Shown: positions 4,081 through 41,166, numbered from the stretch's first letter. The stretch: 64,000 bases of DNA from Candidatus Tenebribacter davisii (GCA_030765535.1 JAVCCH010000025.1:7871-71870), one strand, 5' to 3'. A program made the numbers and translations. The notes: generated by a model from the sequence alone, not told the origin.

Positions 4081-6072
4081 ATGGCAAAAGATTTTAATGC
4101 AGAAAAAAATTATCAGACATCCAAGCAAAAAGTAGGTTATACTGCTCGAAATATAACGCCGCCAAAAACCTATAAAGAGCTCGGATTTATGAGCGGATTG
4201 GAAGTTCATCAGCAACTAAAAACACAAGAAAAATTATTTTGCAGATGCCCGGCAGGATTGTTTAATAAATTTGACGATTATGATGCAGAATTGATCCGTC
4301 ATATGCGCCCCACTCTTTCTGAAATGGGAACCTATGATGGAACTGCTTTAATGGAATTCCGAACTAGAAAAAATATCATTTATCGTATTAATAATGATAC
4401 AACTTGTACTTATGACGTTGATGATACACCACCATTTCCAATTAATAGAGAAGCTCTTGATTATGCTATACAGATAGCTTTAATATTAAAACTTAATATC
4501 GTTGGAGAATTGCATATAACCAGGAAACAATACCTTGATGGAAGCATTCCAACCGGATTTCAGCGTACTGCAATAATTGGGATTGAAGGAGTAATTCCTC
4601 TTAAGAAAAAAAAAATCAGAATTATCCAGCTTAGTATAGAAGAAGACTCCTGTCGTGAAGTATCCGACATTGGTCATGAGAGAACTTACCAGACAGATAG
4701 ACTGGGTATTCCATTAATTGAAACCGTAACTTATCCCGATATGATCACACCTGATGAAGTTCTGGAAGCTGCACAGTACATTCGCTTCTTAAATAGAAGT
4801 TCTGGGAAAGTTAGAGTTGGAATTGGTGCTGGAAGAGAAGATGTAAATGTAAGCATAAATGGTGGAACCCGAATCGAGATAAAAGGTGTTTCACATAATA
4901 AATGGATACCGGAATTAACCCATAATGAAGCTTTCCGTCAGAAAGCACTTCTAATGATCAAAGATATATTAAATAAACGTATTCCAGATATAAATAAATG
5001 GAATCCAACTTTTAAAAATGTTGATTTTGATGTATCGGACATTGGTTATGAACCAATAAAAAATGCGATGAATAATGGGTGGAAGCTTGTTGCTTGTAAT
5101 CTCCCGGATTTTAAAGGAATCTTATCACATTTTCTTCAGCCGGGAAAAACTTTCGCTGACGAAATTGAGAATAGACTAAAAGTAATTGCATGTCTCGAGA
5201 AACCAAATTGTGTACATTCAGAAGATATGAATCATGTGTTCAGTGAATCACTTTTAAAACAGCGTTCGAAATTACTTAAATGCAAAGCAGATGATGCTCA
5301 AATAGTTTTTTGGGCTTTAGATGAAGATGTGCAAACTGCTTGTGAAACTATTGAAGAACGGTGTAGAATGGCATTTGACGGTGTTCCAAATGAAACTCGT
5401 AAAGCATTTAAAGATGGAACCACAATATTTGAACGTGTTCTTCCTGGAGCTGATAGAATGTATCCTGACACAGATTCTGCTCCAATACCAATTGAAGATA
5501 AATACATTAAAGATTTGGGAAAAGATCTTCCTGTAGACCTTAATATCAGATTTAAACAATTGAAAAAATGGCAGGTTCCTGAAGATTGTTTTCACTATAT
5601 ACTCAGAAATAATCTCGCACCTGAAATAGAACGGATCAATAAAGACCTCAAGATCGATCCAAAATATGTTGCTACAACATTTGCACATACCCTAAAACAT
5701 ATTGAAGGGCAATTTATTCCAGATGTTCCCTTTCCATATTCAAAAATATATGATATGTTCAAATTCATTCTAGAGAAAAAGCTTTCTTTTGATATTGTAA
5801 AATCTATTTTACCAATAATTTATCTCTATTCTCAAATGGATTTTGAATCAGTTCTAAATTCTTTGGAATTTGAAAAATATAAAAAAGAAACGATCTTAAA
5901 AAATGTAGGCAGCCTTAAAACAATGTTCCCGAAGATCATTAATTCAAAGAATCCACTAGCTCCCGAGAAATGGATCATGGGAAATTTGCGTCCGATCGCT
6001 CTGGGAAACATACCTTTAAGGGAACTGAATAAATTTGTGCGGGAATCATTATCTGATGGAGGTGTCAAATGA
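4081..6072 (+). CDS. gatE: Glu-tRNA(Gln) amidotransferase subunit E (archaeal type)
   Basis: 'GLEVHQQLKT..KLFCRCP', 'YLDGSIPTGFQRT', 'IEEDSCR', 'DRLGIPLIE', an AspRS-like insertion ('LPDFKGILSHFLQPGKTFADE'), 'RVLPGADRMYPDTD' and a helical tail; likely ATG at 4081. Confidence 0.92.
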   Translation: MAKDFNAEKNYQTSKQKVGYTARNITPPKTYKELGFMSGLEVHQQLKTQEKLFCRCPAGLFNKFDDYDAELIRHMRPTLSEMGTYDGTALMEFRTRKNIIYRINNDTTCTYDVDDTPPFPINREALDYAIQIALILKLNIVGELHITRKQYLDGSIPTGFQRTAIIGIEGVIPLKKKKIRIIQLSIEEDSCREVSDIGHERTYQTDRLGIPLIETVTYPDMITPDEVLEAAQYIRFLNRSSGKVRVGIGAGREDVNVSINGGTRIEIKGVSHNKWIPELTHNEAFRQKALLMIKDILNKRIPDINKWNPTFKNVDFDVSDIGYEPIKNAMNNGWKLVACNLPDFKGILSHFLQPGKTFADEIENRLKVIACLEKPNCVHSEDMNHVFSESLLKQRSKLLKCKADDAQIVFWALDEDVQTACETIEERCRMAFDGVPNETRKAFKDGTTIFERVLPGADRMYPDTDSAPIPIEDKYIKDLGKDLPVDLNIRFKQLKKWQVPEDCFHYILRNNLAPEIERINKDLKIDPKYVATTFAHTLKHIEGQFIPDVPFPYSKIYDMFKFILEKKLSFDIVKSILPIIYLYSQMDFESVLNSLEFEKYKKETILKNVGSLKTMFPKIINSKNPLAPEKWIMGNLRPIALGNIPLRELNKFVRESLSDGGVK

Positions 6073-7451
6073 TAGATATCTTTAAAGGTTATAAAGGTGA
6101 TTCTGTTGAAATCCTGAAGAAGTACCATATTCGTGTTTGGGGAGATGTTGAAATAAAAACAACTCGAGGAGATTTCAGTGGAATAATTCTACCTCGTTCT
6201 GAAAATGATGATGATAAACATATTGTTATTAAGCTTGTTACAGGTTATAATATTGGGATAGACACAGGAACAATAATCGACATGAAAGAGATCGGTTATA
6301 AAGAAGCACATTATAAAATACCTGAAAAAGAGTTCCCCTATACAGAAGGATTACCCAAAGTTAAACTATTTGGAACAGGCGGTACAATTGCTTCCAGACT
6401 GGATTACAGAACTGGGGCAGTAATCCCTGCTTTCTCTCCCGGAGAATTATACGGAGCAGTTCCGGAGCTTGCTGATATTTGTAATTTGGAGACTGAAAAA
6501 CTTTTTGCTGTTTTTAGTGAAAACATGGGTCCAGAGCAATATAAAGCTTTAGCCATAGCTATTGGAAAAGAGATAGAGAAAGGGATCGATGGTATTATTA
6601 TTGGGCATGGAACAGATACTCTCCATCACACAGCAGCAGCTCTTTCCTTCATGATCCAGAATTCTCCTGTACCGATCATTCTGGTTGGTTCACAACGTTC
6701 ATCAGACCGTCCTTCTTCTGATGCTGCTTTAAATCTTATGCATGCTGCAACAGCTGCAGCTAGATCTGATATAGCAGAAGTAATGGTTTGCATGTTCGGT
6801 CCAACTTCTGATGAATATGGACTTTTACACCAGGGAACTCGTGTAAGGAAAATGCATTCTTCATATCGTTCTACTTTCCGTACAATTGGAGACGTACCAA
6901 TTGCAACTGTAACGCGAGAAAAAATAACTCCGATCAAAAAGAATTATAATCGCAGAAGAAATGATAAAAAGGTAACTATTCTTCCATACTTTGATGAAAA
7001 AGTAGCTTTACTTTATTATTATCCAAACATGCACCCGGATATAATTTATTCACTTATTGAAAATAAATATAAGGGAATTATCATAGCTGGAACAGGACTT
7101 GGCCATGTAAATAAACCTTTATATCCGGCTATTAGGAAATGCACTAAATTAGGTATACCCATTTTTATGACCGTACAAACTCTATGGGGTTATGTTCATA
7201 TGTTTGTTTATGATACAGGTCGAGACCTTATGAATTATGGAATAATTCCTACCGAAAACATGCTGCCTGAAGTAGCTTTTATCAAACTCAGCTGGGCTTT
7301 AGGGCAAACCGACGATCTTGATAAAGTTCGTGATCTTATGCTTACGCCTATTTCAAATGATATAACTAAAAGAGAACCTTATAATGGTTATCTGATCTAT
7401 CAAGGCGGAATCCCTGAAGTTGAAGAATTTATCAAAAAAGTACACAAATAG
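6069..7451 (+). CDS. gatD: Glu-tRNA(Gln) amidotransferase subunit D (asparaginase-like glutaminase)
   Basis: GatD-specific N-terminal domain ('GIILPR...HIVIKLVTGYNIGI'), 'GTGGTIAS', 'HGTDT', 'GSQRSSDRPSSD' and 'RKMHSS'; ATGA overlap with gatE. Confidence 0.92.
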   Translation: MIDIFKGYKGDSVEILKKYHIRVWGDVEIKTTRGDFSGIILPRSENDDDKHIVIKLVTGYNIGIDTGTIIDMKEIGYKEAHYKIPEKEFPYTEGLPKVKLFGTGGTIASRLDYRTGAVIPAFSPGELYGAVPELADICNLETEKLFAVFSENMGPEQYKALAIAIGKEIEKGIDGIIIGHGTDTLHHTAAALSFMIQNSPVPIILVGSQRSSDRPSSDAALNLMHAATAAARSDIAEVMVCMFGPTSDEYGLLHQGTRVRKMHSSYRSTFRTIGDVPIATVTREKITPIKKNYNRRRNDKKVTILPYFDEKVALLYYYPNMHPDIIYSLIENKYKGIIIAGTGLGHVNKPLYPAIRKCTKLGIPIFMTVQTLWGYVHMFVYDTGRDLMNYGIIPTENMLPEVAFIKLSWALGQTDDLDKVRDLMLTPISNDITKREPYNGYLIYQGGIPEVEEFIKKVHK

Positions 7452-32498: not shown

Positions 32499-33785
32499 TT
32501 ATTTAAGCAGTATACATTTATTTGAAACTACTGATTTTCCATTTATTTCCATTATATAAAGATAAATTCCAGAAGAAACAGGTTGATTTTTAGTATCAGT
32601 TCCGTCCCAGATTACATTGAATTTATTTTTTTCTTGTTCTTCTATTTCGCTCAGAATGACAGTAAGGTCTTTAACTTTTTGGCCTTTTAAATTAAATATT
32701 TTTATTTGTATGTTTTCGGTATTCTGGGTGTTAACTTCACATGAAATAGTCGTTTCTGAATTGAAGGGATTAGGGTAATTGGTTAAACTGCAAGCAGTTT
32801 TAGGGAGTTGTTTATCATTTGCAGAAACGATATCAGGAACTATTTTAATATCAGTTGCATATGAACCTACAGTGTATTCATTTAAGAGAGATTCATTAAT
32901 ATCAAATACTTTCACAGTGAAATCCTGTCCCCATAATCCGCCTAGAACGAACAGGTTATCATCTGTAGAAGTGACCATACTACCACCGGGAATAAATGGA
33001 TTAGTAACATCGTATATTATTTCATAAGTTTCTGCATTATAGGCATAAAGTGAAGTGCCATTACCATCTGCAATATAAATAGTATTATTTACCATCAAAG
33101 CAAAATTACTTGTTATTCCCCCAATATCCAGAGTGCTCTCAACCGTATTTGAAGCAGGATCTATTATGCAGATCTTACCAGGAATAGTAACCCAGTCTCC
33201 CCCGCAACTCACATGGATCTTACCATTGACTGCTGCCAGGAATTGCGGATTCACTTCAGTCGGGATAGTTGTATCAACGCTGAATGTTTCAAGATCGATA
33301 ACACTGACACTGCAATTGGAATATCCGGTTCCATAATCACTATTACCCACATATAACTTCCCATTCAAAATAGCCATTCCAGCAGGATTCCCGCCAACTT
33401 GAATAGAGGATTCAACAACATCTGTGGCAAGATCGATCTTATAGACCTTATTTATCATTCCACCTGTAGTATAGGCATCATCACCATATATAATTAAATC
33501 ATAAGGATTCGATGAGTTCTCAATATATATATTCGTGATCGTACTGCCGGTATTTATATCGATCTTCTGTACACTGTTATCCCAAGAATTTACAACATAT
33601 GCAAATTCAGTTGTTAAGGCAACCCTGTTTGGCGAAGAACCCAGAACACTGTACACATTGTCTACCTCACCTGTGTCGAAATCAATTCTGGACAAAGTCT
33701 CACTTCCTGAATTAACTATAAATCCTACAGACCCCCATAAATTTATTGTTAAGAATATTATTACAATTATTAAATTTTTTTTCAT
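32499..33785 (-). CDS. YncE/BtuG-like beta-propeller with a FlgD/T9SS-like C-terminal domain
   Basis: Repeats 'AYVVNSWDNSVQKID', 'KLYVGNS' and 'SVSVIDLET'; CTD 'NYPNPFNSETTI...WDGTD...SSGIYLY...KCILLK'; last gene of the btu block. Confidence 0.75.
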   Translation of the reverse strand: MKKNLIIVIIFLTINLWGSVGFIVNSGSETLSRIDFDTGEVDNVYSVLGSSPNRVALTTEFAYVVNSWDNSVQKIDINTGSTITNIYIENSSNPYDLIIYGDDAYTTGGMINKVYKIDLATDVVESSIQVGGNPAGMAILNGKLYVGNSDYGTGYSNCSVSVIDLETFSVDTTIPTEVNPQFLAAVNGKIHVSCGGDWVTIPGKICIIDPASNTVESTLDIGGITSNFALMVNNTIYIADGNGTSLYAYNAETYEIIYDVTNPFIPGGSMVTSTDDNLFVLGGLWGQDFTVKVFDINESLLNEYTVGSYATDIKIVPDIVSANDKQLPKTACSLTNYPNPFNSETTISCEVNTQNTENIQIKIFNLKGQKVKDLTVILSEIEEQEKNKFNVIWDGTDTKNQPVSSGIYLYIMEINGKSVVSNKCILLK

Positions 33786-33801
33786 TTTTTCCATCCTTGA
33801 A

Positions 33802-35934
33802 TCATATTTTATATTCAATTCCCAAATTTATTTCCCAGTTAATTCCGGGTCGTGGTACATGATCATAAATTTCATATAATTTATTCATTATATTATCCAC
33901 TTTAATGGAAGGTGTAACCCTGAAATTCTGCCAAACCACTGAATATTCCACTCCGGCATTTAAGAGATCATATGCAGCAAGTTGATGTTCTGTAGTGGAT
34001 TGATCAGAATTTGTCCATTGTTCTCCAATAAGTTTATAAGAGATATTCCCCTTAAATTTTCTCGTTCTTATCTTAAGGTTTATATTAAGAGAATGATCCG
34101 GCACATAGAGAATTTTACTGTCATAATTAGGATCATTTTCAGTTCTATTCACGGCAGAGCTTTTTGTATATATCGTAACAAGTTCCATAAATTTATATGG
34201 TTTAACATTCACTTCAAGTTCCCAGTTATCAACCTCTGCAGTTGAGAGATTTCTGGGTTTCCACTTACTCCATTCATCTCTAAACCAAATGATCATATCA
34301 TCAATATCATCATGTCGATAAGTAACTTTAAAAATGTACTTTGAAATTATAAATTTGGAAAAGATCTGCCAGCTTAATGAACCTTCTGGTTTTAGATCGG
34401 GATTACCCGATACATGACTGTCTCCTTTCCAAAATAGATTGTAGTAAGAAGGTAACGTATAACCGTTTGCTACATTCCCGCCTAATGAGATCATAAAATA
34501 ATTCTCATAGGAAAATTCCGGTTCCAATTTCCAGCTTGTATGATCATCAAAGCCCGTAGTATTATCCCAACGTGCTGATCCGGTTAAACTTGTAATATAC
34601 GGAAAGTGTTTTTGTCTGAGCTTAGTTTTTCCAAAAACGGCAAAGTTTTCTCTAAAAACTTTTTCAGTTGATTGTTCCGGATAATTCAAATCTGTATATT
34701 TAAATTCCTCATAACGGTAATCTCCACCCCAATCAATGTAGAAGATATCACTTAAATATTCCGAATGAAGTTTTACCTCTCTGCTTTGTTGCTTGTTCCT
34801 GGCTAAAGTTGCCAGATAAATATTTTGTGCCCAGGGATCGTCAAGCCGAGTATTATCATAAACAGACTTATCAAGTGAATAATAGAGATCAGCTTTTAGA
34901 TTATAATCCATTATCTTTCTGGAGTAATTAAAAACATGTTTTTGTGTTTGTCCTGTTAATCGGCTGTTTTTATACCATTCCAGAGATTCAATATTACCAG
35001 GTAATTTTCTAAAGAAATCCTGGAAAAGTAATTTATATGCAAACATGCCAATGGGACTAGTATATGCTAGATTTAAATTTGCGTCATAAATAGATTTCTC
35101 GTTATGTTCTCTTACCTTCAAAATATCCGGATCATTCTGTGGAATATAGGTAAAATCATTGCGGGTAAAACTTTTTCTAAAGTAGGCATAAATCTGAACT
35201 TTAGATGTTGACCTGGATAGTGCAATTGAATGTTGATCCAGACCAAAAGAACCGAAAGTATGAACAGCATTAATCTTGTATCTACTTTGTGCCTGTTTTG
35301 TATTAATATTTATTATTCCGCCCATTGAACCAGCTCCAGCTATACTGCTTGAACTTCCTTTCACAACTTCTATACTCTCTATGATCTCAGCTGGAATGGT
35401 CGAAATATCAAAAGCGGTCCCACTTTTATTTAAGGGAATTCCATCCAGCATTATAAGTGTGTGACGTGCTTTATAACCGGGGAAGATTATCTTCTGTTCT
35501 TCTCCGAAAAGTGGTAATCCTGATATTTGCAGATCAGAGCTTTCGCGCAGTATATCAGCTGCTGAGCCTGAATTATTTTCAGATCTTATCACAATAACCT
35601 CACTTGAACCAATTAATCCTTTCTGCATTTCTTCGATCACTCTTAATCCCTGGATCGTTATAACTTTATCTTGTAGAATCACTGTTTTTTCAATGTTGCC
35701 GGCTGCTTCTGTTTTATCTTGATAATTAATCTTATGAAATTTTACCTCATCTTCTGCCGATACATTATTAATATTGAAATAACCATTTTTTTGTGATATT
35801 ATTGCTTTATCTTTGTAAGTAATTATCACATCACGAATTGGTTTTCCGGCATCATTCACTACTCTGGCTGTTATATTTAAACTTAATAATTTAATCGTAA
35901 TAAAAAATATAATCACCAATATCTTAACTCGCAT
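33802..35934 (-). CDS. btuB: TonB-dependent receptor, likely cobalamin (BtuB-like)
   Basis: N-terminal carboxypeptidase-like domain; plug 'LIMLDGIPLN...IESIEVVKGSSS...GGIINI'; 'NPDLKPE'; C-terminal 'DNIMNKLYE...GIEYKI'; btu context. Confidence 0.8.
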   Translation of the reverse strand: MRVKILVIIFFITIKLLSLNITARVVNDAGKPIRDVIITYKDKAIISQKNGYFNINNVSAEDEVKFHKINYQDKTEAAGNIEKTVILQDKVITIQGLRVIEEMQKGLIGSSEVIVIRSENNSGSAADILRESSDLQISGLPLFGEEQKIIFPGYKARHTLIMLDGIPLNKSGTAFDISTIPAEIIESIEVVKGSSSSIAGAGSMGGIININTKQAQSRYKINAVHTFGSFGLDQHSIALSRSTSKVQIYAYFRKSFTRNDFTYIPQNDPDILKVREHNEKSIYDANLNLAYTSPIGMFAYKLLFQDFFRKLPGNIESLEWYKNSRLTGQTQKHVFNYSRKIMDYNLKADLYYSLDKSVYDNTRLDDPWAQNIYLATLARNKQQSREVKLHSEYLSDIFYIDWGGDYRYEEFKYTDLNYPEQSTEKVFRENFAVFGKTKLRQKHFPYITSLTGSARWDNTTGFDDHTSWKLEPEFSYENYFMISLGGNVANGYTLPSYYNLFWKGDSHVSGNPDLKPEGSLSWQIFSKFIISKYIFKVTYRHDDIDDMIIWFRDEWSKWKPRNLSTAEVDNWELEVNVKPYKFMELVTIYTKSSAVNRTENDPNYDSKILYVPDHSLNINLKIRTRKFKGNISYKLIGEQWTNSDQSTTEHQLAAYDLLNAGVEYSVVWQNFRVTPSIKVDNIMNKLYEIYDHVPRPGINWEINLGIEYKI

Positions 35935-36706
35935 TTTTCCCCGGATATATTAAATTTGGTTTTCCCGAAACAGGATTTTTTATTATTTCCAGTTCAGCAT
36001 TGTATAATTCTTTCAGATTCTCGGAATTCACAATTTTCTCTGGTTTACCATCAGCTATCACAACACCTTCTTTCAGCATGATTATTCTTTCACAATATTC
36101 GCTTGCTAAATTTATATTATGTGAAACCAGAATTATCAGCTTATTGTGTTCCATATTAATATCTGAAAGCAGCTGCATAATTTCCAGTTGATGATTTATA
36201 TCAAGATTTGCAAATGCTTCATCCATCAATAACACCTGTGTCTCCTGAGCCAATGCTCTGGCAATAGATACACGCCTGCGTTCCCCACCACTGAGTTGAG
36301 AGTATAATTTATTTTTAAATGGAACAAGATCAAGCTGAGTTAAAATATGTTGAACAATTTTCTTATCATTTTTTGAGTAGTTCTGCCAGCGTCCAAGATA
36401 CGGGAATCTTCCCATTAATACAAGATCCTCAATTGTGTAATCAAACTGGAGCTGGAAATCCTGCGGGATTATTGCTATCTGTCTGGCAAGTTCCTGCCGT
36501 GACCAGGTATTAAACTCTTTACCTGAAATATATACTTCCCCTGTTTTCTCAAGCTGAAAATCTATAATTGACCTCAGTAAAGTGGATTTCCCAGCACCAT
36601 TAGGTCCTAGAAGAGCACAGAATTCCCCTGTATGAAAATCTATTGAAAGATTGTTCAATACTCTTTTTTGCTGGTATGAAACACATATATCTTTTAACTT
36701 TATCAT
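35924..36706 (-). CDS. btuD: Cobalamin/siderophore ABC transporter ATPase
   Basis: 'GPNGAGKST', 'LSGGERRRVSIARALAQ', 'LMDEAFANLD' and 'SHNINLA'; its stop overlaps the btuB start. Confidence 0.85.
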   Translation of the reverse strand: MIKLKDICVSYQQKRVLNNLSIDFHTGEFCALLGPNGAGKSTLLRSIIDFQLEKTGEVYISGKEFNTWSRQELARQIAIIPQDFQLQFDYTIEDLVLMGRFPYLGRWQNYSKNDKKIVQHILTQLDLVPFKNKLYSQLSGGERRRVSIARALAQETQVLLMDEAFANLDINHQLEIMQLLSDINMEHNKLIILVSHNINLASEYCERIIMLKEGVVIADGKPEKIVNSENLKELYNAELEIIKNPVSGKPNLIYPGKNAS

Positions 36707-36779
36707 TTTTTTACCTTTTCCCAAAATATTACTTGCTAATTCATACTAATTTTATATGTTATACTCTAAGGAGATGATA

Positions 36780-37190
36780 ATGAATATTTCAACGAAGACA
36801 GAATATGCTGTAAGAGCTTTATCTGAACTTGCTCTAAGATCAACTGACAAGCCTGTTTCCATTAATGACATCTGTAAAAGCCAGAATCTCCCTGTGAAAT
36901 ATGTTGAACAACTTTTCCGCAAATTGAAACAGAATGAACTCATAATAAGTATCCATGGAGCTAAAGGCGGATATCAACTTGCCAAAGAGATGAATATTAT
37001 CTCACTCAAAGATATTATGCTGGCCGTTGATGAGAATTATGTTACTTCGGTCTGCTCTGGAAATCCGGAAGGACGAACCCACTGTATCGGGTTACCATGC
37101 GGATTTAAACAATTGTGGGATGAAATAAAAGAACATATGGAACAATATTTTGACTCAATAAAACTGAGTCAGATCGTGGCAAAACTATAG
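36780..37190 (+). CDS. Rrf2 family regulator (IscR-like, 3 Cys)
   Basis: 'TKTEYAVRAL', 'YVEQLFRKL', 'GAKGGYQL' and C-x9-C-x4-C; AAGGAG RBS. Confidence 0.9.
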   Translation: MNISTKTEYAVRALSELALRSTDKPVSINDICKSQNLPVKYVEQLFRKLKQNELIISIHGAKGGYQLAKEMNIISLKDIMLAVDENYVTSVCSGNPEGRTHCIGLPCGFKQLWDEIKEHMEQYFDSIKLSQIVAKL

Positions 37191-37198
37191 GAGAATTT

Positions 37199-38365
37199 AT
37201 GGAAAAAATATATTTTGATAATTGCTTAACATCTAAGCCTGCACCGGAAGTTATTGAAACAATAACTGAATTTATGAAAAATAAATATTACTTCCCTGCC
37301 AATTTCATTGCAACAGGAACTGAAGCAGCAAATAATTTAGCTAAGGCTAAAAAGATTGTCGCAGATTCAATAGGAGCAAATTCTAAGGAGATCCATTTCA
37401 CATCTGGAGGAACTGCTGCAAATAACCTGGCAATAAAAGGTTATCTTACTGCAAATTCAAATAAAGGAACCCACATTATTTGTTCAGTTATCGATTACCC
37501 TGACCTTCTTACTAATGCTGCTTTCTTTGAGGAAAGTGGTTTTGATGTTACATATCTTCAGGCTGATAATGATGGATTTATTGATCTTGAACAGCTTAAA
37601 GAATCAATCAGAGAAGATACTGTATTATTTATGACCACTATGGTTAATCATACAGTTGGAACAATTCAACCCTTAAAAGAGATCCGAGAAATATTAGATA
37701 GCTCCAAGCATAAGATCGCAATGCATATTGATGCCTGTGAAGCCTATGCACGAGTACCTGTAAATGTAGATGAGCTTGGGATAGACCTTATGTCAATAAG
37801 TGCTCACAAGATCCATGGACCTCAAGGTATTGGAGCTTTATATCAACGAAAAGGAATCGTTTTAGGTCAAGTTCAACACGGTATCAACCGAATGGATAAT
37901 TTACAGACAGGCGGATTAAATACAGCATCTATTGCAGGATTTGCTAAAGCTATAGAACTAGCCTTCAGTAACTTGGACGAGAATATTTCACAGATCCGTA
38001 AACTTTCTACTTACTTATTGAATAAAATAGAATCCACAATTTCAGACACTTTATTAAATGGTCCTCGTGGCAATAAACGTGCTTCACATAATATAAATAT
38101 TTCGTTTGATTATATCGAAGGTGAAGCAATTATGATGATGATGGAAATGAATGGTGTTTCTATTTCTACAGGAAGTGCCTGTGCTTCCCAGGGTTTAAAA
38201 CCAAATTATGTTTTAATGGCTTTGGGCAGAAGTCATGAACAATCACACAGTTCAATGAAATTCACACTTAGCAGATATAATACATTCCAAGAGATAGACT
38301 ACACCGTAGAAAAGCTTGCAGAAGTAGTTAAAGAACTTCGTTCACGAAGTCCGCTGTGTAATTAA
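37199..38365 (+). CDS. iscS: IscS/NifS-family cysteine desulfurase homolog with altered substrate-binding residues
   Basis: 'FTSGGT..NNLAIKG', PLP Lys in 'SAHK(204)' and the Cys loop 'STGSAC(328)' are retained; Y100, H151, E181, G239 and K354 are non-canonical. Confidence 0.8.
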   Translation: MEKIYFDNCLTSKPAPEVIETITEFMKNKYYFPANFIATGTEAANNLAKAKKIVADSIGANSKEIHFTSGGTAANNLAIKGYLTANSNKGTHIICSVIDYPDLLTNAAFFEESGFDVTYLQADNDGFIDLEQLKESIREDTVLFMTTMVNHTVGTIQPLKEIREILDSSKHKIAMHIDACEAYARVPVNVDELGIDLMSISAHKIHGPQGIGALYQRKGIVLGQVQHGINRMDNLQTGGLNTASIAGFAKAIELAFSNLDENISQIRKLSTYLLNKIESTISDTLLNGPRGNKRASHNINISFDYIEGEAIMMMMEMNGVSISTGSACASQGLKPNYVLMALGRSHEQSHSSMKFTLSRYNTFQEIDYTVEKLAEVVKELRSRSPLCN

Positions 38366-38392
38366 TTTATAAAGACAAATAAGGAGAATATT

Positions 38393-39013
38393 ATGCAATA
38401 TTCACAAAAGGTACTAGATCATTTTATGAAGCCACACAATATAGGTAAATTAGAAGATCCTGATGCTGCTGCTACCGAAGGAAGTCCAGCTTGTGGTGAC
38501 CAGATCTCGATATTTCTAAAAATTCATCCTGAGACACATATCATCGAAGATATTAAATTCCAATCATACGGCTGCGCTTCCAACATCGCTACAGGTTCCA
38601 TTATCACAGATATGGCAATGGGGAAAACTATTGAAGAGGCTAAGGACATAACCTGGAAAGGTGCTGCTGAGGAACTTGATGGTCTACCGGCAGTAAAAAT
38701 GCACTGTTCTGTTCTTGCAGTAGATACACTTAAGAAAGCTATCAAGAAATACGAGATCGAACATGGTCTGGCAGAAGAAGAAGCATTTACTAAAGATACT
38801 ATTATAGAAGAACTCAAGAAAGTTATCTATCCAGGTGTAGGAGAAGATATCATCACCCTTAAAATGGTCAAGTATGTCGGTTTTGAAAATGGTGTAGCTA
38901 TCGTTGATGTAGAAATTCCCAAATTCGATACACATCGTGATAATGTAGCGGAAGAGATAAAAGAACATTTAGAAGTATTCAAAGAAATCAAAGAAGTAAA
39001 AATTACACTATAA
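38393..39013 (+). CDS. iscU: IscU/NifU scaffold fused to a C-terminal DUF59 (SufT/MIP18-like) domain
   Basis: 'PACGD', 'YGCAS' and 'KMHCS', followed by 'IIEELKKVIYPGVGEDIITLKMV'. Confidence 0.88.
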   Translation: MQYSQKVLDHFMKPHNIGKLEDPDAAATEGSPACGDQISIFLKIHPETHIIEDIKFQSYGCASNIATGSIITDMAMGKTIEEAKDITWKGAAEELDGLPAVKMHCSVLAVDTLKKAIKKYEIEHGLAEEEAFTKDTIIEELKKVIYPGVGEDIITLKMVKYVGFENGVAIVDVEIPKFDTHRDNVAEEIKEHLEVFKEIKEVKITL

Positions 39014-39033
39014 TATTTCATATCATCTTATCT

Positions 39034-39064
39034 AAAACCTTCGGGAATACCCGGAGGTTTTTTA
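39034..39064 (+). terminator. Intrinsic terminator of the Fe-S cassette
   Basis: AAAACCTTCGGG-AATA-CCCGGAGGTTTT with one G-U pair on the plus strand (an A-C mismatch on the minus strand), followed by a T-run. Confidence 0.85.
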
Positions 39065-39108
39065 TTTCATCCCACTCTATACACTTATAAAGAACTATAT
39101 TACAATTT

Positions 39109-40032
39109 TTATTTACTTTTTGCCATAATGAACAGGAAGAAAGGACAACCTAGAAATGCAGTAATTATTCCTACTGGAATTTCTATAATCGTGATGTTCA
39201 TAGCAATAAGATCACACATTATTAAAAGTACTGCTCCGAATATTGCTGAGTAAATGATCCCAGTTCTCTTATTCCCACCCGAGATCATACGGACAATATG
39301 TGGAACAATAAGACCGATAAATCCGATTATACCTGCATAAGCAACAGTAATCCCAGTAAGAAGTGAACTAATTATAAAAATCTTTCTACGCAGTTTTTTC
39401 ACATCAATACCTAGGCTGCCGGCAATGATATCACCGGTTGTCAGTATCATTAACTTTCGTGACAGCAGGAATAAATACAACATCAATAAGATTGAAATTA
39501 TAAATACGATCACGAAATAAAACCATTCCCTACGGCTGAAAATATGGCCTAGATTACCCATCAGCACGTTGATGATATTCCCTATATCCTGCTGATTGAA
39601 ATACATGATAAGTGAGATAAAAGCTGAGAAGAACATTCCTACAATAATACCGGAAAGCAGCAATTTAGTTCTATTAAAAAATCCACCTAAATGTGCCAGG
39701 AACCAGACGATAGTTAATGAGATCAATGCTCCCGCAAATCCAAACAACGGCATGAATAGATATAAACCCAGAATTCCTGCTAATATGCTTCCAAATGCTG
39801 CACCGGAAGATATACCTAGAATGTACGGTTCGGCTAAAGGATTATTTAGCATTATCTGGAAAGAATAACCAACACCGGACAGTATAAATCCTACGAGGAA
39901 TGCCAGCATAATTCGCGGTAATCTCACAGCAATTAAGATATGTGTTGTAGGCTTATTTATAAAAAGATAGAACACAACCAGCAGGATGGAAAAGATACCA
40001 AAAAGAATGAATATCCATTTCCTATTTTTCAT
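39109..40032 (-). CDS. btuC: FecCD/BtuC family ABC permease
   Basis: 'VRLPRI', 'NNPLAEPYILGISSGA' and 'GIIGFIGLIVPHIVR'. Confidence 0.88.
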   Translation of the reverse strand: MKNRKWIFILFGIFSILLVVFYLFINKPTTHILIAVRLPRIMLAFLVGFILSGVGYSFQIMLNNPLAEPYILGISSGAAFGSILAGILGLYLFMPLFGFAGALISLTIVWFLAHLGGFFNRTKLLLSGIIVGMFFSAFISLIMYFNQQDIGNIINVLMGNLGHIFSRREWFYFVIVFIISILLMLYLFLLSRKLMILTTGDIIAGSLGIDVKKLRRKIFIISSLLTGITVAYAGIIGFIGLIVPHIVRMISGGNKRTGIIYSAIFGAVLLIMCDLIAMNITIIEIPVGIITAFLGCPFFLFIMAKSK

Positions 40033-40846
40033 GGAAAATCCTGATCAGTCCAGCTAACCCTTCTATAATTCTGGGTGAAGCCCGTAAAATTACATCAGGA
40101 TCAATATCGCTGGTAGTGTAGATCCTGCCTGTTTTCACAGCAGTAATTACTTCCCAACCTTTTCTTTGCATAACTTGCTCTTTGGTCATACCGGGATATG
40201 TTAATATAATTATTTCAGGATCATTCATAATTACCTCTTCAGGATTTATCCTGCTGTAATCTCTGGGTAATTTTGGGAAAATATTATCTCCACCAGCAAA
40301 GGTGATCAACTCTCCTACAAATGATTCATCGCTAACGCTCATTATAGGATTCCCATAAATTTCTATATACACTCTCGGTAAATTTGTGAATTTATTATAA
40401 TTTTGAATTATTTTTTTCAAACTATCCGCAACAAATTCAGCCCTATCTAATTTATTTATCTCCTCTCCTATCACAATTATTGCAGAGAAAAAATCTTCTA
40501 TCGTTTGAGGATATATAGGTATTGTATTTATATTAAGTTTTTTTAGTTGGGAAGCTATCGCTTGTTGTTCCAAACCGGAAGTAAACACAACGCTAGGATC
40601 CAATGAGATGATCTTTTCATAATTAATATTGCCAAAGTTACCAACTTTTTCAATTTCCTGCAGATTTTTGGGATAATCACATTCTATTGTTACACCAACA
40701 ATATTCTTTGCACCTTCAAGTAGACAAACAATCTCAGCGATTTCTGGAGATGTAATAACATACCTATCACCCTTAAGCTCTTTGCTTTTTGAGCATCCGG
40801 TTAGTATAATCAGACTAAAAACAAAAACCAGAATTATTTTTTTCAT
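40022..40846 (-). CDS. btuF: Cobalamin-binding lipoprotein (BtuF-like)
   Basis: Lipobox ILTGC; 'NYEKIISLDP', 'INPEEVI..DPEII' and 'LRASPRI'; directly behind the riboswitch. Confidence 0.85.
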   Translation of the reverse strand: MKKIILVFVFSLIILTGCSKSKELKGDRYVITSPEIAEIVCLLEGAKNIVGVTIECDYPKNLQEIEKVGNFGNINYEKIISLDPSVVFTSGLEQQAIASQLKKLNINTIPIYPQTIEDFFSAIIVIGEEINKLDRAEFVADSLKKIIQNYNKFTNLPRVYIEIYGNPIMSVSDESFVGELITFAGGDNIFPKLPRDYSRINPEEVIMNDPEIIILTYPGMTKEQVMQRKGWEVITAVKTGRIYTTSDIDPDVILRASPRIIEGLAGLIRIFHEK

Positions 40847-40900
40847 AAAAAAAATCCTTTTATCTCTGAAGCTAAAAACAGCTGCTAAAATAAAAGGATT
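40847..40900 (-). promoter_or_regulatory. Riboswitch expression-platform hairpin (SD-sequestering and terminator-like)
   Basis: 11-bp stem formed by 40853-40863 and 40890-40900 contains the AAAGGA SD; a U8 run overlapping the stem base runs to the btuF AUG. Confidence 0.7.
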
Positions 40901-40948
40901 CATAAAACTTATTAACACAATAACTCATGCTCCGGAGTATTTGTAAAT

Positions 40949-41107
40949 AAGCTCTATGGCAGGTTTCCTGGCTTGCAGATGGATATATATTACAGACCTT
41001 CCCAATTACTCAGTGACCCGTAACTCCAATAATATCTTCTACTTACAGTGGCGGAGACCGCTCCCGATTTACACGAGATTCCCTTTTACTCTTGCACCAT
41101 CAAGCTT
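40949..41107 (-). ncRNA. Cobalamin riboswitch
   Basis: Minus strand reads GGTGC...AAAAGGGAA-TCTCGTGTAAATCGGGAGCGG...CCGCCACTGTAA...GTCACTGAG...TGGGAAGG...AAGCCAGGAAACCTGCC, all canonical B12-element blocks. Confidence 0.95.
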
Positions 41108-41166
41108 CACTCTATAATAATAATTTTAATTAATTAACTACTGACAATATGTCAAGCACTGTAATA

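Follow-up and report, generated by a model that had tools for sequence, protein, structure and literature searches.

Can a cysteine desulfurase homolog still draw sulfur from cysteine after the His, Asn and Arg that are treated as universal in these enzymes have been exchanged, or has it taken on another part in the assembly of iron-sulfur (Fe-S) clusters? This question is raised by a gene of the IscS/NifS type, here called S, within a 64,000-nucleotide stretch (the window) of the genome of Candidatus Tenebribacter davisii (GCA_030765535.1, JAVCCH010000025.1:7871-71870), a member of the Cloacimonadota. Comparison of S with its relatives points to a phylum-wide, strongly selected variant that keeps the pyridoxal 5'-phosphate (PLP) site and drops the canonical catalytic set. 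The gene and the codons on which the argument turns are as follows, with equivalent residues numbered as in E. coli IscS.

37199..38365, + strand: S gene, class-I IscS/NifS homolog variant, intact open reading frame of 388 aa
37496..37498, + strand: codon of Tyr100, equivalent to His104, the PLP-stacking acid-base residue
37649..37654, + strand: codons of His151-Thr152, equivalent to Asn155-Glu156
37739..37741, + strand: codon of Glu181, equivalent to Gln183, which hydrogen-bonds to O3' of PLP
37805..37810, + strand: codons of His203-Lys204, equivalent to His205-Lys206, the phosphate contact and the Schiff-base lysine
37904..37915, + strand: loop Gln236-Thr-Gly-Gly239, equivalent to R240-S-G-T243
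38180..38182, + strand: codon of Cys328, in the retained mobile loop STGSACAS
38258..38260, + strand: codon of Lys354, equivalent to Arg354, the substrate carboxylate binder

The S protein matches the Aminotran_5 family (PF00266, E 5.8e-62). Among NCBIfam models it matches NifS and IscS best, in both cases with scores below the equivalog cut-off (361.2 versus 530.75 bits for NifS TIGR03402 and 335.7 versus 643.2 bits for IscS TIGR02006). The AlphaFold2 (AF2) model of the protein (predicted local distance difference test, pLDDT, 89.2; predicted template modelling score, pTM, 0.89) superposes in Foldseek on NFS1, E. coli IscS, A. fulgidus IscS and NifS with template modelling (TM) scores of 0.89-0.93, and profile and model together identify the fold-type I, class-V PLP fold. 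Confidence is lower in three stretches of the model: residues 31-40, which contain the remodelled GNPxS motif; residues 221-240, a loop in contact with the adjacent subunit; and residues 321-330, where the mobile Cys loop lies.

We aligned S with IscS of E. coli K-12 (from NC_000913) using MAFFT and verified the codons. The six substitutions read by eye in the initial annotation (H104Y, N155H, E156T, Q183E, T243G and R354K) are all real, although the residue listed there as T241 is T243 of the E. coli protein. The PLP lysine (K206 in E. coli, K204 here) and Cys328 are retained, as had been stated, and so are T76, D180, S203 and H205. Beyond these, the alignment revealed previously unreported changes at invariant positions, namely A11L, N35F, S38N, E77A, E103D, L114F, S149M, G233V/I, E236 to a hydrophobic residue, R240Q and S336N. 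Asp99, whose codon directly precedes that of Tyr100, corresponds to Glu103, and in the loop formed by residues 236-239 both the Arg and the phosphate-contacting Thr are gone. S thus retains the features of a desulfurase that anchor PLP (T76/D180/S203/H205/K206), together with a nucleophilic Cys on a long SxGSAC loop, and lacks the His104 stacking base, the Arg354 carboxylate site and Asn155/Gln183 at the PLP O3'.

These changes are not of equal weight. In cysteine desulfurases the role of acid-base catalyst is proposed for the conserved His, and the carboxylate of the substrate is bound by the Arg (PMC8918507). In E. coli IscS the R354K variant is fully active, whereas H104Q, Q183E, D180 mutants, K206A and C328S lose activity (PMC9978102). 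The earlier description of S as having lost its substrate-binding set was therefore overstated for R354K, and also for position 183, which alternates between E and Q within the clade described below.

To place the substitutions in an evolutionary frame, 121 members of the clade to which S belongs were compared position by position with 111 canonical relatives. Sixteen positions at which canonical enzymes show at least 85% conservation are replaced in the clade (A11, N35, S38, E77, E103, H104, L114, S149, N155, E156, G233, E236, R240, T243, S336 and R354), nine of them being 100% invariant among the 111 canonical relatives. E103D, H104Y, N155H, S336N and R354K are each the single replacement, fixed in 121/121 members; at positions 103 and 104 the canonical relatives have Glu and His in 100% of cases. 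Position 156 is Thr in 106 members and Val in 15, and E77 and R240 vary as a pair (E/R in canonical enzymes, D/K in the intermediate form introduced below, and A or S with Q or E in the derived form). These roughly 16 replaced near-invariant residues are pocket and dimer-interface positions, and by this comparison the pattern is far beyond chance.

The retained residues are equally constant. His203-Lys204 is unchanging in every clade member examined, Cys328 is constant in all examined homologs that cover the position, and the PLP anchors together with Cys328 are invariant across 121 metagenomic relatives and 9 genome orthologs at 42-100% identity. The invariance of T76, D180, S203, H205 and K206 suggests that S still binds PLP. 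The pattern is carried by 120/120 of the homologs nearest to S in the database, which are 66-100% identical and all bear the label Cloacimonadota or FCB group, so that the substitutions are not private to this sequence, an outcome that had been named as refuting their significance; as had been proposed, they co-occur as a clade, fixed in all 121 members and supported by the tree. Further out, identity falls from 62% to 43% over the 150 closest cluster representatives (50% level), and 126 of the 153 tabulated sequences (these representatives and three references) are canonical. The S gene shows a ratio of nonsynonymous to synonymous substitution rates (dN/dS) of ~0.05 against same-genus orthologs, and the variant is carried by 142 of the 151 Cloacimonadota genomes scanned. 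On these measures the variant is a selected lineage, frozen across almost the whole phylum, and not as a decaying gene.

Forms that differ in their degree of change exist within the phylum, and we summarise them by the residues at H104, N155, E156, Q183, K206, R240, T243, C328 and R354, in this order. Families f12 and f14 have a wholly canonical S (HNEQKRTCR) beside a short IscU of 124-138 aa. The intermediate S of families f13 and f15 carries N155H, E156T/I, Q183E, R240K, N35F/Y and E77D, has lost T243, and retains H104 and R354. The order to which the window genome belongs additionally shows H104Y, E103D, R354K and R240Q/E. This gradation indicates that the pocket was rebuilt in steps, N155H and its companions first and H104Y, E103D and R354K later.

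A maximum-likelihood tree (LG+C20 with posterior mean site frequencies, PMSF; trait columns removed) gave ultrafast bootstrap (UFBoot)/Shimodaira-Hasegawa-like approximate likelihood ratio test (SH-aLRT) supports of 100/99 for the derived clade, 100/100 for the intermediate clade and 100/96 for the two joined, with a bootstrap that was incompletely converged. Both nest (97/92) in a wider group of which N155H is the common mark, and which adds P0141 of the Caldisericota (Ca. Cryosericum), P0235 and the degenerate archaeal proteins P0145 (Desulfurococcaceae), P0128 and P0198. The signatures of the archaeal relatives drift (HHEDKWVCL, PDENKRMCI, DQEHTRICR). S groups with S-U-linked homologs of archaea and anaerobes, away from E. 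coli IscS, in a tree whose deep nodes have weak support. The canonical S proteins of f12 and f14 branch elsewhere in the tree, as does the window genome's own paralogue of S; descent of the variant directly from the f12/f14 type is accordingly unsupported, and the lineage of the variant may be an old one or may have been gained by horizontal transfer.

The S gene lies in an operon whose other parts are the following.

36756..37190, + strand: Rrf2/IscR-like regulator, first gene of the operon, 144 aa (PF02082 Rrf2, E 2e-33)
38393..39013, + strand: scaffold (U) with an IscU domain and a C-terminal DUF59 (FeS_assembly_P/SufT-like), 206 aa
39034..39061, + strand: intrinsic-terminator-like hairpin with a 12-pair stem (6 G-C pairs), followed by a T run

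The regulator has three clustered Cys (VCSGNPEGRTHCIGLPC) and scores under the IscR equivalog cut-off (118 versus 207.55 bits). It is separated from S by 8 nt and S from the scaffold by 27 nt, and the hairpin closes this three-gene Rrf2-S-U operon, the gene order of which is kept throughout the Cloacimonadota as judged from genome orthologs. The scaffold matches PF01592 (E 1.2e-41) and, over its C-terminal 70 aa, PF01883 (E 7.2e-6). Its IscU domain retains all canonical ligands, that is three Cys, the Asp and the His, and in 119/120 scaffold sequences the ligand residues are intact and the DUF59 is free of Cys. Proteins with DUF59 are involved in the maturation of Fe-S proteins (PMC4982691, PMC9045647).

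The type of scaffold follows the type of S. The downstream neighbour of each intermediate or derived S is a 206-215-aa IscU-DUF59 fusion; that of canonical S is a plain IscU, as in the canonical control P0129 with its 125-aa IscU. A homolog search with the IscU-DUF59 scaffold returned Cloacimonadota matches only, and pairing outside the phylum was judged from the neighbours of out-of-phylum S proteins. By this means the same pairing was identified in the Caldisericota, where a NifU_N plus FeS_assembly_P protein comes after the N155H-type S. The archaeal P0145 has a plain NifU_N neighbour and P0128 a Mrp-like one, so the link between S type and DUF59 is not universal in the wider N155H clade. 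In P0128 the PLP lysine is replaced by Met, and the gene (archaeal-looking contig, L021 3141-5191) overlaps an upstream Mrp/ParA-type gene (PF10609) by 4 nt, with no adjacent IscU; at this locus a degenerate S may have entered another kind of partnership. A contig (JGI 3300040734, L040 3001-7176) carries both types in tandem, the first pair consisting of an N155H-type S and IscU-DUF59 and the second of a wholly canonical S and a 123-aa U. This second U is partly degenerate, having lost the first ligand Cys, and is followed by a PALP-family gene.

Elsewhere in the 95%-complete genome we found no SufB/D, HscB or IscA and no second scaffold, the gene at 38393-39013 being the only NifU_N match of the genome. 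The operon therefore appears to be the sole Fe-S system and to resemble the minimal iron-sulfur (MIS) type, in agreement with the initial annotation. The canonical desulfurase whose presence elsewhere it had proposed to check does exist. This 377-aa NifS-like paralogue on contig C203 has every canonical residue and is largely confined to the family of the window genome. At this locus (G000, L001 1492-3573) it is followed after 6 nt by a 313-aa open reading frame, in which a CYTH-type domain seems to be linked to a C-terminal part resembling acetyltransferases, and two HD-GYP-like genes lie upstream. In several relatives the open frame around the paralogue reaches ~740-750 aa, a length that suggests either that the genes are fused or that they are very tightly coupled.

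Desulfurase candidates were tallied across the phylum as PF00266 matches at E <= 1e-50; a tally by matches to P0003 at E <= 1e-20 had come out too low, as it missed an EF2568-type protein of family f6. The variant is the sole such match in 68/151 genomes, of which 62 belong to the order of the window genome and 6 have the intermediate form; G003, G012 and G019, which are complete, are among the 68. In these three and in G028, likewise variant-only, the next-best match is SerC.

Three further genes were noted. A class-V PLP protein of ~580-610 aa with the motif RAGCSCAGPYG is encoded in G012 (L029 385-2139), with similar proteins in G028, G082 and G092; G012 and G028 hold a ~590-aa class-V protein beside the variant, and G003 and G019 do not carry the RAGCSCAGPYG protein. 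The motif resembles the NifS-like domain of molybdenum-cofactor sulfurases, and the protein might be an enzyme that mobilises sulfur and has so far escaped recognition. A separate class-V enzyme with a GLHCAP motif (EF2568-like) is present in families f6 and f2. In one genome (L033, G049:C1:2876500-2883500, 4448-6644) it lies directly upstream of a SelD-like gene, and in f6 it lies ~1 kb from the Rrf2-S-U operon and divergent to it; the enzyme probably acts as a lyase that donates selenium and not as a housekeeping desulfurase. Finally, MnmA occurs in variant-only genomes and is of the CxxC-C type. Enzymes of this type depend on a [4Fe-4S] cluster and can use sulfide in vitro (PMC7025502). The presence of MnmA, which we had considered as an argument for a working desulfurase, is consequently neutral. 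In the MnmA of G003 (L025 389-1537) the CxxC is kept and ESQDFLQ stands where relatives read ESQDICF, so that it appears to be without the third conserved Cys of the set.

Against this background, we favour a reading that we hold to be evenly poised between right and wrong, in which S remains a PLP-dependent catalyst acting on cysteine through a rewired pocket and serves as a sulfur donor. S would dock on IscU and use Cys328 of the mobile loop, onto which the rewired catalytic set would mobilise sulfur from cysteine. His151, perhaps with Glu/Gln181, and Tyr100 would replace the acid-base and O3' network of His104/Asn155, Lys354 would hold the substrate carboxylate, and turnover would probably be slower or dependent on the partner scaffold. 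S would then be an alternative solution to the same chemistry and not a dead partner of the A. fulgidus type.

The combination of invariant PLP anchors with frozen new residues argues that the pocket was rewired rather than abandoned, since an abandoned pocket would be expected to drift as it does in the archaeal relatives. Several replacements look like compensatory pairs: N155H with Q183E, the changes at E77 and R240, and the appearance of His155 before the loss of His104. The order of events deduced from the extant forms, with His155 arising while His104 and Arg354 were present and H104Y following later, fits a hand-over of function. The 68 genomes in which the variant is the only Aminotran_5 candidate also speak for an active enzyme, as do the place of S in the operon of the window genome's sole scaffold and the full activity of R354K in E. 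coli IscS.

Several observations weigh on the other side. H104Q and Q183E each abolish the activity of E. coli IscS (PMC9978102), the His replaced here is the proposed acid-base catalyst (PMC8918507), and the literature searched contained no characterised desulfurase with Tyr at position 104. Within the wider N155H clade, K206 is lost in P0128 and R354 in P0145 and P0198, and the lineage thus tends to shed catalysis. The canonical S beside the variant in the tandem contig and in the window genome suggests that the two types are not redundant. A lifestyle free of desulfurase is also feasible, as the MnmA type of the phylum uses sulfide in vitro.

The strongest competing explanation, which we consider a real possibility if a clearly less probable one, is that of the initial annotation, by which S is a non-desulfurase partner that holds IscU and in which, as in A. 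fulgidus IscS, Cys328 serves as a cluster ligand, PLP is structural and the sulfur comes from ambient or metabolic sulfide. Cloacimonadota inhabit anoxic and often sulfidic environments. The replacement of His104, Asn155 and Gln183, with the two inactivating E. coli mutants, would be expected of such a protein, as would the forms without K206 or R354 in the enclosing clade, the coexistence with canonical desulfurases in this genome and the tandem contig, and the 68 genomes that have no other desulfurase candidate and whose MnmA type can use sulfide. The best sequence match of S in the PDB is A. fulgidus IscS2, and both the MIS and the SUF-like minimal (SMS) systems are reportedly able to use sulfide (PMC13066941). 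What this explanation leaves unaccounted for is that the PLP anchors including the Schiff-base Lys are strictly kept, unlike in all documented inactive forms, and that the replaced residues are frozen instead of drifting. The R354K change is neutral in E. coli IscS, and a purely structural PLP maintained phylum-wide would be unusual.

Carried further, the same line of thought would have nearly half of the Cloacimonadota, the complete genome G003 among them, living without any functional cysteine desulfurase and building all their Fe-S clusters directly from sulfide on a MIS-type S/IscU-DUF59 complex, with the conserved PLP site of S repurposed, for example for sulfide capture or regulation. 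We regard this as rather unlikely. If true, it would be a bacterial, phylum-scale counterpart of the situation in methanogens, and the use of sulfide by MIS could be studied in a system provided by nature.

An altered substrate or reaction, such as another thiol or selenol amino compound, a beta-elimination of the desulfhydrase type or a sulfide-capturing reverse reaction, seems distinctly improbable to us. The changes do cluster at carboxylate-binding and acid-base positions (N35, N155, R354 and H104). Class-V enzymes of other reaction specificity use aromatic stacking residues, and a PLP-stacking Tyr could help beta-elimination, as in PLP enzymes of Cys/Met metabolism. The Q183E variant of E. 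coli IscS also accumulates a Cys-quinonoid from alanine plus sulfide (PMC9978102). Set against these points are the locking of the gene in the Rrf2-S-U operon phylum-wide and the canonical state of the Cys328 loop and of the C-terminal LRxxSPL region. Moreover, no pathway for an alternative substrate is linked to S, and the selenium-linked class-V enzyme is a separate gene by SelD. Decay or an annotation artefact with private substitutions has a negligible chance of being correct, because nothing beyond the substitutions themselves suggests it, the reading frame is intact with a dN/dS of ~0.05, the pattern is fixed in 121/121 relatives, and the variant is present in 142/151 genomes and is the only S partner of the only scaffold.

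The surroundings of the operon in the window are made up of genes on the opposite strand.

40941-41116, - strand: cobalamin riboswitch, preceding the btuF-like and btuC-like genes
40022-40918, - strand: btuF-like gene
39109-40032, - strand: btuC-like gene
35924-36724, - strand: btuD-like gene
33802-35934, - strand: TonB receptor gene
32499-33818, - strand: propeller protein with a C-terminal domain of the type IX secretion system (T9SS) type

The Rrf2-S-U operon thus sits in the middle of a B12 uptake cluster and in opposite orientation to it (window 32499-41116). An assignment of the flanking TonB receptor, ATP-binding cassette (ABC) transporter and binding-protein genes to iron uptake was ruled out by the cobalamin riboswitch, which identifies them as B12 uptake genes and leaves the operon without iron-specific linkage. 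The 64-kb window contains no nif genes; nifHDK were not searched for genome-wide.

The reading of S as an active, rewired desulfurase and its main competitor have different consequences. If S is active, it would represent a second design of the desulfurase pocket, and its natural compensation would assign roles to His104, Asn155 and Gln183; if it is inactive, Fe-S biogenesis in bacteria can proceed free of desulfurase. In some genomes the variant is the only candidate sulfur donor. It comes with a natural intermediate form and a co-evolving IscU-DUF59 scaffold, and the canonical, intermediate and derived states amount to a set of natural mutants suited to experiments. Of the systems for Fe-S assembly, MIS has been studied least, and cysteine and sulfide are both under discussion as its source of sulfur (PMC13066941). 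The literature searched held no description of Cloacimonadota desulfurases, of IscU-DUF59 fusions or of this pocket variant.

Among known systems, the C-terminus of the scaffold resembles the SufT/DUF59 factors of S. aureus and M. tuberculosis in matching PF01883 FeS_assembly_P, and differs from them in that the domain is fused to IscU and Cys-less and does not stand alone beside sufBC. The operon shares with the MIS system (MisS/MisU; defined by Garcia et al, 2022, and reviewed in PMC13066941) an S-U pair without carrier, chaperone or ferredoxin, in an anaerobic host. Described MisS proteins are treated as cysteine desulfurases and MisU proteins as IscU-like or NifU-like (PMC13066941), whereas here the pocket of S is rewired and U has a C-terminal DUF59, neither of which is mentioned in the reviews consulted. 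With the canonical class-I enzymes E. coli IscS, H. pylori NifS and human NFS1, S shares 36-37% identity and the fold, along with the PLP anchors and the Schiff-base Lys, a mobile Cys loop of type I and a C-terminal region for docking on IscU; it departs from them at the sixteen near-invariant positions, among them the His acid-base catalyst and the Asn and Arg that bind the carboxylate.

Judged by sequence, the nearest solved structure is that of A. fulgidus IscS2-IscU (PDB 4EB5/4EB7/4HVK; D199K mutant 4R5F), the best PDB match at E 5.5e-82. The likeness drawn in the initial annotation holds to this extent, and further in the fold (TM ~0.9), the position of S next to IscU, the minimal system, the anaerobic host, the canonical Cys loop and the loss of several catalytic residues, one of which is Arg354 (replaced by Leu in A. 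fulgidus). It fails at the PLP lysine, which is retained here. Of the marks of the A. fulgidus-type inactive protein, S thus has the loop Cys and the adjacent IscU, and does not have the lysine loss that the documented inactive A. fulgidus IscS and M. acetivorans IscS1 have undergone (PMC7585200). In the tree, an A. fulgidus-like signature (P0215, HNEADRSCQ) falls outside the N155H clade. A. fulgidus IscS has Asp for the PLP lysine, Asn for His205 and Ala for Gln183, and keeps His104, Asn155 and Glu156 (PMC7585200); the Cloacimonadota S is the reverse, with every PLP anchor kept and His104, Asn155 and Glu156 replaced.

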